This document shows positions 3,754-22,819 of a stretch of 54,842 nucleotides of DNA, piece after piece. The notes beneath the pieces were generated by a model. It did not search any database and was not told the DNA's origin. It saw nothing but the letters and a program-made list of their open reading frames with translations. The stretch comes from Candidatus Enterousia sp. GTDB taxonomy: Bacteria; Pseudomonadota; Alphaproteobacteria; Rs-D84. The translations under genes and the position numbers were made by a program. The DNA lies in assembly GCA_045649345.1 (NCBI GenBank), contig JAZRPS010000007.1:1-54842 (forward strand). Reading direction: 5' to 3'. Each line of letters opens with the position of its first letter. Positions within the stretch are counted from its first letter, which is position 1.

Positions 3754-4023
3754 ATGGCAAAATATTATTGTGAAAAATATTTTTACCCAGAAAAATATAA
3801 CACATATAAATGCGAGTATAAATGCGAGCAAAACGAACAAAAGGTATGTTCGCGTGAATGCAATGAATCTAATTACTGTCCGCGCAAATTGCGTTTGGAT
3901 AAAGAACAGTTTGCAATGCTGGACAGTTTGCGCGTTGTAAAGAAACAAAATCTAAAAATCATGGAACAAAACAAAAAGATTATAGAAGAGTTGACATTAC
4001 AACGATTACAGAAACAAGAATAA
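3754..4023 (+). CDS. Small Cys/Tyr/Lys-rich hypothetical protein with a coiled-coil C-terminus
   Basis: SD aaggag upstream; it fills the gap between ileS and nth, and its stop overlaps the nth start (TAATG). Confidence 0.75.
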   Translation: MAKYYCEKYFYPEKYNTYKCEYKCEQNEQKVCSRECNESNYCPRKLRLDKEQFAMLDSLRVVKKQNLKIMEQNKKIIEELTLQRLQKQE

Positions 4024-4670
4024 TGACGCCGGCACAATATTTTGAAATGGTTCCGCCGACCGTTGATATGACGATACGGTCGGAACTGTTTCATACAAAC
4101 GAATTTAACTTTGCGGTGGCGGTGATTCTATCCGCCCAGGCAACAGATAAAAAAGTGAACGAGGTGACATCTGCCCTATTTTCTGTTGCACCCACGCCTG
4201 AAAAAATGTTGGCATTGGGATTGGACGGATTAAAAGAACATATCCGGGTCATTTCTTTCTTTAATAACAAGGCGAAAAATATTATCGCATTGTCGGAACG
4301 ATTACATGCCGAAAATATGACCGATAAATTCCCGACCAAATATCATAATCGCGATGAATTGATGAAATTGCCGGGCATCGGACAAAAGACTGCAAATGTT
4401 GTGTGCAATGTCCTGTGGGGTGCGCCAAATATCGGCGTGGATACGCATGTTTTCCGCAATGCACACAGATACGGTTGGGTCGATGACGCGGACAATACAC
4501 CCGAAAAAGTTGAATTAAAACTGTTGAAAAAAATTCCAAAAAAGTATCACGCAATTGTAAATCATGTAATGGTTTTACACGGTCGGTATGTGTGTACTGC
4601 ACTGCGACCAAAGTGTGATAAATGTCCTATTTCAAATTATTGTCCGTATAATAATAAATCTTTGCATTAA
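4023..4670 (+). CDS. nth: Endonuclease III
   Basis: ILSAQATD, HhH motif LPGIGQKTAN, VDTHVFR, and 4Fe-4S motif C-x6-C-x2-C-x5-C. Confidence 0.95.
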   Translation: MTPAQYFEMVPPTVDMTIRSELFHTNEFNFAVAVILSAQATDKKVNEVTSALFSVAPTPEKMLALGLDGLKEHIRVISFFNNKAKNIIALSERLHAENMTDKFPTKYHNRDELMKLPGIGQKTANVVCNVLWGAPNIGVDTHVFRNAHRYGWVDDADNTPEKVELKLLKKIPKKYHAIVNHVMVLHGRYVCTALRPKCDKCPISNYCPYNNKSLH

Positions 4671-4695
4671 ATATTTCTCTTCCGACCCATGAAAC

Positions 4696-4727
4696 AAAAA
4701 AACACCCCGCACGGGGGTATTTTTTTT
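4696..4727. terminator. Bidirectional intrinsic terminator (nth / tRNA)
   Basis: A-tract, ACCCC-gcac-GGGGGT stem, T-tract. Confidence 0.8.
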
Positions 4728-4732
4728 AGTTT

Positions 4733-4806
4733 TGGAGGCCTGGGTCGGGATCGAACCGGCATCCAGGGATTTTCAGTCCTCTGCATAACCACTCTGCCAC
4801 CAGGCC
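4733..4806 (-). tRNA. tRNA with tRNA-Cys scaffold but GAA (Phe) anticodon; CCA encoded
   Basis: GGCCUGG UG GCA GAGUGGUUA UGC A GAGGA CU-GAA-AA UCCCU GGAU GCCGG UUCGAUC CCGAC CCAGGCC U CCA. It is 74 nt with a perfect 7-bp acceptor stem and U73. Confidence 0.9.
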
Positions 4807-4902
4807 AAAACTTTGTGTCGTCATATTACGCAAAAAAAAATTGTATTTCAACATAAAAATAGTATAATTATTAACAAAGTTTATAAGAGAGAGTGGGATT
4901 CC

Positions 4903-6243
4903 ATGAAAAAAGTATCATTTTGGGCACTGTTTTTAATGCCTTGTTATGCATTTGCGTCGTCTGATGATTGTATGACACGAACGACTGTACCCTCAGAACG
5001 CATGACCTTGCCCCAGGTTATTGAATTGGGGTTATGTCGAAATCCCCAGACAACGGCATCTTATTTGGCATATGAATCCGCGCGTTTATCAAAAAATGCT
5101 AATTATGCGGATTATTTACCCAGTGTAAACGCATCTGCATCTGCATCATTACCATACAGAAACAAAGAATGGGGTGATTGGTCATATGGTGCATCATTGT
5201 CGGCATCTTATTTGATTTTTGATTTTGGTAAACGTCTGGCTGATTTGAATCAGTCTGCGGCCGCGTGGCGTGCAACTGGGTTTGATTATGATGAAACGGT
5301 TCAAAATTATATTTACAGTTTAATTGGTTCTTATTATGCCCTGTTGAACGCAGATGCAGATGTAAAGTCTGCGGAAATGTTGCGTACCGTGGCGCAAACG
5401 GCACGTGATACCGCCCAGAAAAAGTTCAAGGCCGGCGCTGTCGCCAAGGCAGATGTATTAAAGGCTGACACTACATTGGCCAGTCGTGATCTTGATTTAG
5501 AACGTGCGAAAAACAATCGTGAAATTGCCAAGGGTACATTGTTAAATAAATTATCGTTCCCAGCCAACCAGAATATTGAAATTGCAGACCTGCCGTCTGA
5601 AATTGGCGCGCCCCAGGAAACAAAGACGCTGGACGAATTGTTCGCCCAGGCGGAAAAAACACGCCCTGATTTATTGCGTGCAACTGCGAACAAGGATTCT
5701 GCGTGGCACAGAAGAAACAGTGTGTTTTTAAGTAATTTACCATCGATTTCTGCATCTGGTTCTGTATCTTGGAATGATACGCCGTCCGAAACATATGGTG
5801 CCGGTTCTGATAAAATCAGTGGCAGTATTGGTATCCGTGCATCTATGCCATTGTTTGCGGGGTTTGCGAACTTATACAATGCCCGTGCCGCCCAGGTAAA
5901 TTATGACCGTGCAATCGAACAGGAACGCGCTGCCCAGGATAATGCAACACTGGACGTGTTTACCGCATATCAGAATTACAAGACTGCCCAGACGGTATTA
6001 AAACAAACGGAAACATTGTTAAAATCTGCCACGGAATCAGAACGTGTGACCGCCGGTATGTACAAGGTTGGACGTGCAACAATGTTGGATTGGCAAACCG
6101 CACAATCTGAATTGGTATCTGCGGAAAAACAAAACAATGCCGCCAGATATGATTTGTTTACAAAACGTGCGGCTGTTGCATTGGCGGTTGGTGAAATAAA
6201 GGCAGAGTTAGAGGAGGGAAAACACCATGAAGAAAACAATTAA
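4903..6243 (+). CDS. TolC-family outer membrane efflux protein
   Basis: Signal peptide MKKVSFWALFLMPCYAFA; two OEP repeats (LIFDFGKR, MPLFAGF, YKVGRATMLD). Start moved to ATG 4903 after a purine-rich SD-like stretch. Confidence 0.9.
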   Translation: MKKVSFWALFLMPCYAFASSDDCMTRTTVPSERMTLPQVIELGLCRNPQTTASYLAYESARLSKNANYADYLPSVNASASASLPYRNKEWGDWSYGASLSASYLIFDFGKRLADLNQSAAAWRATGFDYDETVQNYIYSLIGSYYALLNADADVKSAEMLRTVAQTARDTAQKKFKAGAVAKADVLKADTTLASRDLDLERAKNNREIAKGTLLNKLSFPANQNIEIADLPSEIGAPQETKTLDELFAQAEKTRPDLLRATANKDSAWHRRNSVFLSNLPSISASGSVSWNDTPSETYGAGSDKISGSIGIRASMPLFAGFANLYNARAAQVNYDRAIEQERAAQDNATLDVFTAYQNYKTAQTVLKQTETLLKSATESERVTAGMYKVGRATMLDWQTAQSELVSAEKQNNAARYDLFTKRAAVALAVGEIKAELEEGKHHEENN

Positions 6244-19631: not shown

Positions 19632-21274
19632 TGCAAAAATATGATGTAATTGTTATTGGTGGCGGTCATGCAGGTGTCGAAGCGGCATCTGCGTCTGCGC
19701 GTCGTGGCGCAAAAACACTGTTATTAACCCAGGCAGGATCTGACCTGGGGGCATTGTCGTGCAACCCCAGTATTGGTGGCCCCGGTAAATCCCAAATGGT
19801 CGCCGAAATGGACGCATTGGGTGGCGTTATGCCACGCGCCGCAGATCGGGCTGGGATTCATTGGCGCACGTTAAATGCGTCGCATGGTGCCGCAACCCAG
19901 GCATTGCGCGCCCAAATAGACCGCAATTTATATCATAATGCAATTGTTGATATTTTATCGGCCGACGAAAATTTAACGGTAAAATACGAACCTGTTTTTG
20001 ATTTAGATATAAAAAACAAGACGGTTAATAAAGAATATTCTGCCACTGCAATTGTTTTAACAACGGGCACATTCTTGGGTGGTTTGGTGACGCGTGGCAA
20101 TGAAAAAATCCCGTCTGGACGTTTGCAAGATGACGGTACATATCAATCGCCTGATACGCATATTTCCGGCGTATTGCGCGATTCTGGTTTTAAATTATTG
20201 CGCCTTAAGACGGGAACGCCTGCGCGTATCAAGAAAGATTCAATCGATTTTTCTGTATGTGAAGTTCAGCCTGGTGACACCCCCCACGATTGGTTCAGCG
20301 ATGGTGATGAAAATAATAATTATGACAGTGTGTGCTATATAACCCACACAACGGAACATACGCACGATGTTATTCGTGAAAATATAACAAATGCCCCGAT
20401 GTATAATGGCGACATTCGTGGTACTGGTCCACGTTATTGCCCGAGTTTAGAAGACAAGGTTATGCGTTTTCCAGACCATAAAACCCACCATGTTTTCTTA
20501 GAGCCTGAGGGTTGGAACAGCGATTTGATTTATCCAAATGGCATATCGACCAGTTTTGGCAGTGATGTCCAAGATAAATGGATTCGTACAATCCCGGGCT
20601 TAGAAAATGCAGAAATTGCCCGTTATGGCTATGCAATTGAATACGATGCAATTGATGCGCGCGCATTAAATAATAAATTGCAATCCAAGAATATTCCAAG
20701 CTTGTTCTTTGCAGGACAAATTAATGGAACGTCTGGGTACGAAGAAGCCGCCGCCCAGGGTTTAATTGCGGGCGCAAATGCCGCCGCATATGCATTGGGT
20801 GCGGATTCGCTGGAAATCGACAGAACAAATTCAATGATTGGTGTTTTGATTGATGACATAACGACATTGGGGGTTGATGAACCGTACCGTATGTTTACAT
20901 CGCGTTCTGAATATCGCCTGTCTTTGCGTTCTGATAATGCAATTGCTCGTTTGGGACCGATTGGTGTAAGGCTGGGGTTAATCAGTGACGAAAAATACAA
21001 CGAAAAATTGTCACGTAAATCTGAAATAATCGCCCAAAATGATAAATTCTATGCCGGCTATATCGCGCGCAATGAACGTGAAATCGCGGCATACAAACGC
21101 GATGCGATGTTGAAAATTCCGGCTGATTTTACGTATGATGCCCTGCCCGGCTTAACAAATGAATTAATCGAAAAATTAAACGCCACGCGTCCGGAAAATA
21201 TTGCCGCATTGTCACGCATACCTGGTATGACCCCGGCGGGAATAATGGTTGTTTTACGACGTGTGAAAAATTAA
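19631..21274 (+). CDS. mnmG: tRNA uridine-5-carboxymethylaminomethyl modification enzyme MnmG/GidA (compact form)
   Basis: GGGHAG.EA, SCNPSIGG, RLKTGTP, GPRYCPS.EDK, AGQINGTSGYEEAAAQG, EPYRMFTSR.EYRL. Confidence 0.96.
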   Translation: MQKYDVIVIGGGHAGVEAASASARRGAKTLLLTQAGSDLGALSCNPSIGGPGKSQMVAEMDALGGVMPRAADRAGIHWRTLNASHGAATQALRAQIDRNLYHNAIVDILSADENLTVKYEPVFDLDIKNKTVNKEYSATAIVLTTGTFLGGLVTRGNEKIPSGRLQDDGTYQSPDTHISGVLRDSGFKLLRLKTGTPARIKKDSIDFSVCEVQPGDTPHDWFSDGDENNNYDSVCYITHTTEHTHDVIRENITNAPMYNGDIRGTGPRYCPSLEDKVMRFPDHKTHHVFLEPEGWNSDLIYPNGISTSFGSDVQDKWIRTIPGLENAEIARYGYAIEYDAIDARALNNKLQSKNIPSLFFAGQINGTSGYEEAAAQGLIAGANAAAYALGADSLEIDRTNSMIGVLIDDITTLGVDEPYRMFTSRSEYRLSLRSDNAIARLGPIGVRLGLISDEKYNEKLSRKSEIIAQNDKFYAGYIARNEREIAAYKRDAMLKIPADFTYDALPGLTNELIEKLNATRPENIAALSRIPGMTPAGIMVVLRRVKN

Positions 21275-21275
21275 T

Positions 21276-21303
21276 AAAAACGCCGGCATTTGCCGGCCTT
21301 TTT
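21276..21303. repeat. Palindromic terminator repeat copy
   Basis: aaaaacgccggcatttgccggccttttt between convergent mnmG and fabZ. Confidence 0.8.
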
Positions 21304-21304
21304 G

Positions 21305-21748
21305 TTATTCTTTTTCTGCTTTTTGCAGAACGGCTGTAAATGTCGCCTCTGCTACCTTTTTTCCGCCAACCATGGCGATACCATGAAATTTGTATAACTT
21401 CATTTTTGTTAATAACAGTTCAACATGTAATTCCAATTTGTCGCCTGGGCGCACCATATGTGAAAACTTAATTTTTTCCATTGTTGTGAAATAGCCCAGC
21501 ATGTCTTTACGTTCTGCTTCGGTCATTCTTTTAAATGCGACATAGCATGCGGTTTGCGCCAATGCCTCTACCTGTAATACACCGGGCATAATTGGGTCGC
21601 CTGGAAAATGCCCTGGGCACCAAAATTCATCGTCACGAACATATTTTATACCAACCGCGCTGGTGTCATTATATTCGCGAATTTCATCAACCAATCGCAT
21701 GTCACCACGATGTGGAATTATTTTTTCAATTTCTTTTGCGTCAATCAT
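21305..21748 (-). CDS. fabZ: 3-hydroxyacyl-ACP dehydratase
   Basis: IPHR..M.LVD, GHFPG.PIMPGVL.VEALAQ, V.PGD.L. Confidence 0.94.
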   Translation of the reverse strand: MIDAKEIEKIIPHRGDMRLVDEIREYNDTSAVGIKYVRDDEFWCPGHFPGDPIMPGVLQVEALAQTACYVAFKRMTEAERKDMLGYFTTMEKIKFSHMVRPGDKLELHVELLLTKMKLYKFHGIAMVGGKKVAEATFTAVLQKAEKE

Positions 21749-21766
21749 ATGTTTTTTCCTTCTCTT

Positions 21767-22819
21767 TTATTTTTTATCATTTTTCATTTGTTTTTTTAAC
21801 CATGCATAATGACGCATAAATTCTGTTCCTGGACCTGCTGGATATCCCATATGACTTTCGCCATCTGGAATATTGCGGAAAACCCCACTGTTTGCACCAA
21901 CGGACGCATCGTTTCCAATGTGTACGCCGTTTGCAACACCAACATGTCCCCCCAATAACGCGCGGTCACCAACCACAACACCGCCTGCCAGACCAACACC
22001 ACTGGCCAAGAAACATTCAGAACCGATAACAACGCCATGTGCAATCTGACACAGGTTGTCAATTTTTGTGCCATCACCCACGCGCGTATCTGTCATCGCG
22101 CCACGGTCAATGCATGTATTTGCTCCAACAGATACCCGTTCGCCCAAAACAACACGACCAACGTGTGGGATAAATATGTTTTTGCCATTTTGACGGGTGT
22201 ATCCAAAGCCGTCTTTGCCAATTACTGCGCCAGAATTTATTATACTATCTGCGCCAATTGTTGCGTTTTCGATATGCGCCCCAGATTGTATAATTGTGTT
22301 TCGTCCGATAACAACGTTTCGTCCAATGTATGCATATGGGTATATCTTTGCGCCTGGCTCAATTACTGCCCCTCGTTCAATTGTTGCAAATTGCCCGACA
22401 TAGTTTGTACGTCTTTTGCGAAAGAAGACACCCCGGTCAATATGTGCATTTTTACTGATACCGAAACGTGGTTTTTCTTTATAAATTTCACCCAATATTT
22501 TTACGATATTTCCACGTGGACTGTCTGTGATTAACAGTGTCGCCCCCTTTGGTGCGTGTTTTGCCTGTTCTGGCTGAACCAGTATCACAGTTGCACGTGT
22601 TTTTTGTAAAACCTCTATCGGCAGAATTTTAAAGGCATTACTGTTTTGTTCTGTGGAATAGAATGCCAATTGTCCGGCGCGCGCATCTGCGATTGGCGCG
22701 ACGCCACGCACAGGTTCATTTGCGTTTCCACGTAATTCCAAGCCGAATTTTTTGGCCAATTCGCCCGCGGTCGTCTTGCTTGCGCTGGGCATAAACAAAG
22801 ATTTAATTATTTTTATCAT
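21767..22819 (-). CDS. lpxD: UDP-3-O-acyl-glucosamine N-acyltransferase
   Basis: Hexapeptide repeats, IG.DGFGY, GANTCIDRG, KIDNLCQIAH. Start moved to ATG 22819. Confidence 0.93.
   Translation of the reverse strand: MIKIIKSLFMPSASKTTAGELAKKFGLELRGNANEPVRGVAPIADARAGQLAFYSTEQNSNAFKILPIEVLQKTRATVILVQPEQAKHAPKGATLLITDSPRGNIVKILGEIYKEKPRFGISKNAHIDRGVFFRKRRTNYVGQFATIERGAVIEPGAKIYPYAYIGRNVVIGRNTIIQSGAHIENATIGADSIINSGAVIGKDGFGYTRQNGKNIFIPHVGRVVLGERVSVGANTCIDRGAMTDTRVGDGTKIDNLCQIAHGVVIGSECFLASGVGLAGGVVVGDRALLGGHVGVANGVHIGNDASVGANSGVFRNIPDGESHMGYPAGPGTEFMRHYAWLKKQMKNDKK

Follow-up and report, generated by a model that had tools for sequence, protein, structure and literature searches.

The stretch of DNA analysed here (hereafter the window, 54,842 nucleotides long and contig C7 of a draft genome of Candidatus Enterousia sp. 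that we designate G000) carries, at 4733–4806 on the reverse strand, a tRNA gene that unites the body of a tRNA-Cys with the GAA anticodon of a tRNA-Phe. By sequence and gene order, this gene is the orthologue of the single tRNA-Cys gene of its genus and not a duplicate, because it sits at the genus's one conserved tRNA-Cys locus. The explanation that we prefer, and hold with roughly evenly divided confidence, is that the allele is real, has lost the ability to decode Cys codons, and drifts without constraint, with a working tRNA-Cys residing in unassembled or mobile DNA; most likely, the gene does not encode a tRNA made for bending the code. Provided that the allele is real, as we believe, viable wild strains have had an essential single-copy tRNA gene disabled in its anticodon, which predicts a source of tRNA-Cys that is invisible in draft genomes. 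Finding that source would show tRNA gene turnover in a lineage full of small elements that insert at tRNA genes.

The G000 draft comprises 914,234 bases in 25 contigs and is 95.9% complete. According to excerpts of PMC12306168, Enterousia (order Rs-D84) consists of gut bacteria with genomes below ~1 Mb, and the group to which the host belongs has undergone strong genome reduction. In the data analysed here, the genus is one of gut Alphaproteobacteria with genomes of ~0.9 Mb, and the locus was found in animal-gut runs; a small share of its words also turned up in two metatranscriptome runs.

Structure and signals of the tRNA gene

The gene and the features around it are as follows.

4733–4806, reverse strand: 74-nt tRNA gene, tRNA-Cys body with a GAA anticodon (ARAGORN, Rfam, and orthology)
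4772–4774, reverse strand: anticodon GAA; the middle base, 4773, is T on the forward strand, where the C of 28 of the 30 aligned loci reads as G
4766, reverse strand: private change of U42 to C, turning the A28-U42 pair of all relatives into A28.C42
4749, reverse strand: private change of U60 to C in the T loop (aligned loci and conspecific contigs)
4823–4851, reverse strand: promoter-like TTGAAA-17-TAATAT upstream of the tRNA (pattern search; kept in relatives, and conspecific contigs do not differ here)
4704–4718, no strand: GC-rich hairpin with T/A runs on either side, a likely two-way terminator (from sequence) between the tRNA 3' end and the convergent nth
4813–6243, forward strand: gene for a TolC-like outer-membrane efflux protein (Pfam OEP), transcribed divergently from the tRNA; on this side there is synteny across the genus
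4023–4670, forward strand: endonuclease III gene (nth), convergent with the tRNA; this side is common to the conspecific contigs but not to other genomes of the genus

The only tRNA that ARAGORN calls within the window is 4733–4806 (reverse strand), labelled ‘tRNA-Phe’ with the anticodon gaa, and the Rfam tRNA model (RF00005) matches it with 51.1 bits (E 4.1e-08), with a single non-standard pair flagged in each of the anticodon and T stems and none elsewhere. Direct reading gives a perfect 7-bp acceptor stem, GGCCUGG/CCAGGCC (with G1-C72, G2-C71, and C3-G70); a D stem, GCAG/AUGC, of three Watson–Crick pairs plus G13.A22; a 7-nt D loop, AGUGGUU; the anticodon loop CU-GAA-AA, in which GAA occupies 4774–4772; a 4-nt variable loop, GGAU; the mismatches A28.C42 and C50.A64; and a 3' end with an encoded CCA behind U73, the discriminator base of tRNA-Cys. 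ARAGORN, Rfam, and direct reading thereby confirm what the earlier note had described from the letters alone, namely a 74-nt tRNA with tRNA-Cys-type features, a GAA anticodon, and two A.C mismatches. The GCA expected of a tRNA-Cys is replaced by GAA; G34, A35, and A36 are those of a tRNA-Phe, and the A73 expected of a tRNA-Phe is replaced by U73.

With the tRNA-Phe(GAA) of the same genome, the tRNA has in common the GAA anticodon and an identical stretch of 16 nt (nt 29–44), and it would read the same UUY codons. Kinship does not extend further: the true tRNA-Phe is 76 nt long, has A73 and a GCUC/GAGC D stem, and matches at 81% over nt 28–74 only, with a different D arm and length, and its core is invariant in the genus. 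Annotators should be aware that ARAGORN-type callers would report two tRNA-Phe genes and zero tRNA-Cys genes for this genome. Minimum-free-energy folding of single sequences in three GAA and GCA forms gave a cloverleaf for none, normal tRNA-Cys included, and is uninformative.

The promoter and terminator described in the earlier note were both found, but consensus-type promoter and hairpin sites are about as frequent in shuffled sequence (1.1 and 0.5); the TTGAAA-17-TAATAT promoter is nevertheless conserved upstream of the orthologues.

Orthology and rarity of the GAA allele

Full-length matches to 4733–4806 occur in 24 of the 24 same-genus genomes searched, at 91–97% identity. Synteny is restricted to the TolC-like side and does not hold genus-wide on the nth side; over 1,617 nt of the former, the nearest relative, G023, is 93.3% identical and the next best 79%. 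Among 30 aligned loci, 28 are the same 74-nt gene with GCA, which by orthology bears out the tRNA-Cys body proposed earlier, and two (G000 and G023) have GAA. The gene resembles the canonical tRNA-Cys of the genus in its locus, promoter, length of 74 nt, U73, G13.A22, 4-nt variable loop, and C50.A64, and departs from it in GAA, A28.C42, and C60, being unable to read UGY. Near-closed relatives have exactly one tRNA-Cys (e.g. G003, in 2 contigs, and G013, in 5 contigs).

A 32-nt core of the gene, with any base allowed at position 35, is present in 250 of 257 genomes of the genus. Position 35 is C in 148 and A in 2 of the 150 core matches listed, a tally that leaves out 105 further core matches. 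A 24-mer specific to GAA occurs in 2 of the 257 genomes (G000 and G023), in one record of genome_contigs, and in none of the metagenome contig collection; the GCA form occurs in at least 120 metagenome stretches from many habitats.

The C50.A64 mismatch is found in all 25 genus copies aligned, the 23 GCA copies included, and is a feature of the lineage, not damage. (The other families of the order that were aligned have U50-G64 at this T-stem position.) A28.C42 and C60 are private to G000, relatives having A28-U42.

Contigs from Logan that are 97–98% identical to window 4500–5400 were recovered from four of four public runs, which belong to four studies. In all four, these conspecific contigs have G at 4773 (GCA), A at 4766 (U42), and A at 4749 (U60). 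The tRNA is joined to its flanks within two of these contigs (X3, 7,845 nt, over the whole stretch, and X4, 2,044 nt, over 4733–5400). No GAA contig was seen in those four runs, and contigs can drop rare variants. Because the conspecific contigs of all four runs read GCA, GAA is a rare allele and not a trait of the species. The earlier note had held that its reading would fall if relatives had GCA here while this copy was unexpressed and a normal tRNA-Cys lay elsewhere: relatives and conspecific contigs do read GCA at this place, but a normal tRNA-Cys is absent elsewhere in the assembly.

The search for another tRNA-Cys

ARAGORN reports 45 tRNAs in G000 and Infernal 44, none of them new. The survey of the whole assembly answers a question raised in the earlier note: a separate, normal tRNA-Phe(GAA) is present (C20:31041–31116, 76 nt, A73), and a tRNA-Cys(GCA) is absent. 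No second tRNA-Cys was found in the assemblies of either GAA genome (G000, 96% complete, and G023, 93%) with ARAGORN, Infernal, BLAST, or two loop patterns. These two patterns, of anticodon loop plus T loop, recover the true tRNA-Cys in the control genomes G003 and G167 and return nothing tRNA-like in G000, G023, and a third genome, G262. Partial pieces of tRNA-Cys were not found elsewhere in G000 either, with four segments and up to 2 mismatches. A selenocysteine-like or otherwise odd tRNA-Cys was rejected, as the tRNA-Sec model matches only long-arm tRNAs, and apparent ‘second copies’ of tRNA-Cys in five genomes of the genus proved to be mostly overlapping contig ends (8 of the 10 places lie at or near ends).

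Of the 235,541 codons in 576 long open reading frames of G000, 1.42% specify Cys, among them those for the iron–sulfur cysteines of the neighbouring nth, and the cysteinyl-tRNA synthetase (CysRS) is intact (472 aa in G000 and 474 aa in G023). With an intact CysRS and Cys codons in use, a working tRNA-Cys(GCA) is therefore needed. For the UUY codons, which account for 4.1%, there is a single tRNA-Phe gene.

Essential RNA genes are demonstrably missing from the draft, which also breaks at tRNAs. The G000 assembly has no 16S gene and no tRNA-Ile(GAU), and a tRNA stands no more than 500 nt from 8 of its 50 contig ends. tRNA-Phe is likewise absent from four other metagenome-assembled genomes (MAGs) of the genus that are 82–94% complete.

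Three viral contigs in IMG/VR hold the GCA core, two with a full tRNA-Cys and one with a 5' piece of 40 nt. The two full genes (L235:145–218 and L236:3243–3316) have GCA, U73, and an A1-U72 acceptor pair and stand in viral contigs of 36–38% G+C; the piece (L234:1299–1339), the first 40 nt of tRNA-Cys only in a viral contig of 67% G+C, resembles an attachment site. Supply by such phages was considered and rejected, as the viral contigs have nothing but the tRNA in common with G000 and there is no host link.

CysRS and its gene

The earlier note had suggested an alloacceptor switch to Phe or a mistranslator that inserts Cys at UUY codons, for either of which CysRS might be informative. No CysRS column in the alignment departs from the genus consensus in both GAA genomes; the inspection lends neither proposal any support, and co-evolution of CysRS with the GAA tRNA was rejected on this ground. 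The CysRS proteins of G000 and G023 are only 68.7% identical despite the closeness of the two genomes. Their gene, cysS, is a mosaic, with ~1.2 kb that is 54–83% identical inside flanks that are 95–99% identical (G000 C8 ~20600–21850; G023 L203 and L157), and its last ~200 nt are 98% identical between the two. The nearest kin are G021 for the CysRS of G000 (89.5%) and G015 for that of G023 (89.6%), relatives of the two alleles standing at 88–90%. Recombination has swapped most of cysS.

Constraint and drift

Among the other tRNAs of G000 and G023, 29 of 34 paired rows are identical (10 further G000 tRNAs have no counterpart among the G023 loci compared); tRNA-Gly differs by a compensatory pair, tRNA-Leu(TAG) by a mismatch in the T stem, and tRNA-Glu(CTC) and tRNA-Ser(GCT) by changes in their second copies. 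The gene at 4733–4806 has 2 private changes plus A35 per 74 nt against a neutral expectation of ~2.5 (third-position rate), counts that are small, and G023 has no extra change. In G000, the gene looks unconstrained, changing at about the neutral rate, although two to three substitutions are not separable from a few adaptive changes.

Among the explanations offered in the earlier note was a decaying duplicate. The decay fits (U42C breaks a pair, U60C is a further change, and the rate is about the neutral 2.5 per 74 nt), but the gene is not a duplicate, since it sits at the genus's tRNA-Cys locus. Repair of the two A.C mismatches by C-to-U editing, also proposed there, loses its main support, as C50.A64 is genus-wide; moreover, we know of no editing that turns A35 into C.

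A real allele or an artefact

Two GAA haplotypes exist, with A35, C42, and C60 in G000 and A35, U42, and U60 in G023. The two genomes are 86–93% identical over 80 kb around the locus. Polarised with two outgroups, the private changes in 1.7 kb beside cysS number 14 in G000 and 15 in G023, and those in coding sequence fall on third codon positions in 11 of 13 and 13 of 13 cases, respectively; real evolution leaves this kind of pattern in accurate assemblies. Since most private differences elsewhere fall on third codon positions, random sequencing error seems improbable, and the simple base-call error at 4773 that the earlier note had allowed for is unlikely, given the second, different GAA haplotype of G023 and private differences that look like real evolution.

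Six sites in the flanks separate G000 from all four conspecific contigs, and G023 has the conspecific state at all six. Position 4773 is the only site common to G000 and G023 against this local genealogy; therefore, this change occurred on two occasions, underwent one reversion, or was carried over on a very short tract, and selection for GAA or a site-specific artefact could lie behind the pattern. In G000, each of the three tRNA changes makes a neighbouring homopolymer longer, as against one of eight private flank sites. A 13-nt near-repeat, GGACTG-N-AAATCC, which agrees with tRNA-Phe at 12 of 13 positions and becomes a 16-nt match after U42C, could have templated the change of C35 to A. Two other routes were rejected: a de Bruijn or PCR chimera of tRNA-Cys and tRNA-Phe (the normal sequences share runs of at most 6 nt) and an element-borne replacement of the 3' half (the conspecific contigs have both flanks and a normal tRNA).

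It is quite unlikely, in our estimation, that the majority genome reads GCA and that GAA entered the assembly through sequence-specific miscalls, or through a rare variant threaded through a tRNA node shared with co-occurring relatives. Such a path would dispose of the difficulty that a cell with GAA in its sole tRNA-Cys gene ought not to survive, although its CysRS and Cys codons are normal, and would agree with the GCA of the conspecific contigs in four of four runs; in those runs, tRNA depth is several times flank depth, as for a node common to several species, and contigs break there. The homopolymer lengthening by every one of the three changes, the sharing of 4773 alone with G023 against the local genealogy, and the odd tRNA-Cys alleles of two other MAGs of the genus (G262 and G167) point the same way. 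Against it stand two distinct GAA haplotypes in two assemblies, the grouping of the three changes in a stretch of 25 nt in mid-contig (54.8 kb), and the impossibility of a k-mer chimera when the longest run common to normal tRNA-Cys and tRNA-Phe is 6 nt. General miscalling must also be low, for the private differences of both genomes are equal in number and almost all at third positions. Moreover, an exact match to the equivalent 27-nt stretch of tRNA-Phe exists in 249 of 257 genomes, and the 6 of 8 non-matchers checked include no defective allele. We infer that the GAA allele is not an artefact.

Proposed course of events and alternatives with a function

The events that we propose would begin with a C35-to-A point mutation in the single-copy tRNA-Cys gene, turning GCA into GAA at the conserved place with promoter and terminator left standing. 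The product would be unable to pair with UGU or UGC. The loss of GCA would remove a major CysRS determinant, and the A73 of tRNA-Phe would be missing as well; excerpts of PMC9976931 state that CysRS needs GCA, that U73 is the discriminator of tRNA-Cys, and that A73 belongs to tRNA-Phe identity. On these grounds, the GAA tRNA would be at best a poor substrate for CysRS or PheRS, with weak charging by either possible. Later drift in G000, at about the neutral rate, would have broken a stem pair (U42C) and brought a second change (U60C). The working tRNA-Cys(GCA) would lie in DNA missing from the draft, be it in a gap between contigs, on a short contig that was left unbinned, or on a mobile element, and must exist outside the assembly because the cell uses Cys codons and has an intact CysRS. 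We infer that the GAA tRNA is non-functional and that a second tRNA-Cys copy exists. G000 itself offers a precedent, in that tRNA-Glu(CTC) and tRNA-Ser(GCT) each occupy two loci with one copy changed. The proposal is weakest in that the second copy is postulated, not seen, in three separate genomes: such a copy would need to be peculiar to the lineage and to have dropped out of the assembly of every genome concerned, and the changed tRNA sits at the ancestral locus, not at a new one.

Another alternative is a working anticodon shift: should the tRNA prove to be charged and to serve in translation, it would exemplify a sense-codon anticodon shift under way in a wild bacterium. On this account, the GAA tRNA is expressed and used at UUY codons, either charged by PheRS as a harmless extra tRNA-Phe or charged by CysRS through U73 as a Cys-for-Phe mistranslator, and a separate tRNA-Cys(GCA) is still needed; we regard it as unlikely. 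In its favour, promoter, terminator, CCA, and cloverleaf are kept in both GAA genomes, two lineages show this change in conflict with the local genealogy, as expected under parallel selection, and U42C makes nt 29–44 identical to the tRNA-Phe of G000, whose single tRNA-Phe gene must meet 4.1% UUY codons. As to identity, excerpts of PMC9976931 name G34, A35, and A36 as the main Phe determinants and A73 as only a minor one in T. thermophilus, list U20 and U59, both present here by our loop numbering, as used by E. coli PheRS, and report that U73 alone confers Cys identity on minihelices. Nevertheless, an allele in 2 of 257 genomes of the genus that is absent from conspecific strains is unlike a maintained function, U42C makes a mismatch beside a G.U pair, drift in G000 is about neutral, no CysRS column is off the genus consensus in both GAA genomes, and the canonical tRNA-Phe is unchanged in G000 and G023. 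Highly improbable, to our minds, is that these lineages have no chromosomal tRNA-Cys(GCA) at all and that their Cys codons are read by a tRNA from a phage, a plasmid, or a partner cell, or after an anticodon change of some kind. Three genomes of the genus do have a tRNA-Cys gene that cannot read Cys codons and no other tRNA-Cys (GAA in G000 and G023, a 12-nt loss in G262), no such allele was seen for tRNA-Phe, viral contigs with a full tRNA-Cys(GCA) and U73 exist (L235 and L236), and genomes in the group are strongly reduced (excerpts of PMC12306168). Yet these viral contigs have only the tRNA in common with G000 and no host link, three events versus none is not significant, and all three genomes are incomplete drafts (93–96%). 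We also know of no bacterium that imports tRNA. Very unlikely, too, is a combination of both accounts, in which several lineages (two with GAA, one without an anticodon arm, each at the single tRNA-Cys locus of the genus) have lost chromosomal Cys decoding and live on outside tRNA-Cys, with the GAA tRNA, reached twice in parallel, expressed and active at Phe codons, where it either supplements tRNA-Phe or puts Cys in place of Phe.

Comparison with other unusual tRNAs

In remolded tRNA genes, as here, a gene orthologous to one isotype carries an anticodon substitution that changes the isotype. Saks, Sampson and Abelson reportedly described a tRNA anticodon shift in E. coli in 1998; mitochondrial tRNA remolding and anticodon shifts in eukaryotic genomes are further examples of isotype change. 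In the known cases of anticodon shift, a redundant copy changed and the new function was kept. Here, by contrast, the change lies in the sole visible copy, its allele is rare, and the gene seems free of constraint; no other copy supplies the original isotype within the 96%-complete assembly.

Excerpts of PMC10404621 present the tRNAProX family (tRNAProA, ProN, and ProT) as mistranslating bacterial tRNAs of hybrid identity. The likeness lies in one isotype's body joined to another's anticodon, and the tRNA at 4733–4806 could put a wrong amino acid at a sense codon. tRNAProX is an extra, conserved gene beside a normal tRNA-Pro. In the present case, it is the normal gene itself that changed, in 2 of 257 genomes and not in the conspecific contigs, with no sign of conservation or of a matched synthetase; 4733–4806 is not a dedicated extra gene conserved among relatives.

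Displaced, decaying tRNA copies, which small elements inserting at tRNA genes leave behind in this lineage, form the third point of comparison. Similar to the present case are the second copies of tRNA-Glu and tRNA-Ser in G000, which have private changes, and mini-insertions in relatives, in which the 3' end of tRNA-Cys is repeated. The conspecific contigs differ, having the same flanks on both sides and a normal tRNA, and no insertion or displacement explains 4733–4806.

Other genomes of the genus and controls

Seven genomes of the genus lack the 32-nt core pattern (G139, G240, G167, G262, G048, G085, and G096). The tRNA-Cys of G139 is a harmless variant, and that of G240 is a fragment with GCA at a contig end. 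In G167 (L237:1501–1574), a tRNA-Cys(GCA) has C40 changed to G, giving a G30.G40 mismatch in the anticodon stem, together with a change in the variable loop. G262, which is 93% complete, has a 62-nt tRNA-Cys remnant in mid-contig (G262:C8:59647–59708; L239:1504–1562, reverse strand) without nt 27–38, a loss of 12 nt that removes the anticodon loop in full together with the 5' strand of its stem; no other tRNA-Cys match was found in this draft. No tRNA-Cys match was found in G048, G085, and G096, which are 64–74% complete.

In the tRNA-Phe core, used as a control, GAA is present in 74 of 74 genomes that are at least 96% complete, and the core is exact in 249 of 257. The eight non-matchers include four without the gene, one with a run of N, and one variable-loop variant, the other two being outside the check. 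The run of N, in G050 (L241:1456–1500), interrupts the tRNA-Phe and is a masked stretch or a scaffold gap. The count of odd alleles, four for tRNA-Cys versus zero defective ones for tRNA-Phe, is suggestive but not significant. For tRNA-Asn, natural variation swamps the comparison, as the exact core is found in only 133 of 184 genomes.

Further observations on tRNA genes

The two loci of tRNA-Glu(CTC) in G000 are C5:28239–28313 and C10:12993–13066, and those of tRNA-Ser(GCT) are C8:22049–22136 and C4:11–98, in each case with differing or diverged downstream DNA. One tRNA-Glu(CTC) copy is normal and the other has a private change that gives a C2.C71 acceptor mismatch; one tRNA-Ser(GCT) copy is normal and the other has a private U60A in the T loop. 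The tRNA-Leu(TAG) of G000 (C18:148832–148916) has an A52.A62 mismatch in the T stem that is absent from G023, and a tRNA-Leu at C18:171015–171099 has the anticodon AAG, A34 being unusual outside tRNA-Arg(ACG). A permuted, two-piece tmRNA lies at C12:45616–45970.

Insertions of ~130–200 nt stand behind the tRNA-Cys at five loci (L004, L006, L009, L012, and L017), and most of them end in a repeat of the last 17–19 nt of the tRNA plus a second terminator, L017 having only a similar start. In contig X3, a mini-insertion of the same kind is seen at window 4675–4739, where a 65-nt stretch is repeated with 133 other letters in between. In G023:C35 (L222:1709–1778, reverse strand), the first ~40 nt of tRNA-Met(CAT) are repeated ~140 nt upstream of the intact gene, the repeat stopping just after the anticodon loop, as a displaced 5' half. 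Gene order around the tRNA differs between window 1–27041 and G023:C33: in G023, the block from IleRS to nth is on the other side of the block that contains the tRNA with the TolC-like and HlyD-family genes. The two genomes also differ by the inversion of a 7.5-kb block, and tRNA genes stand at several of the breakpoints between them.
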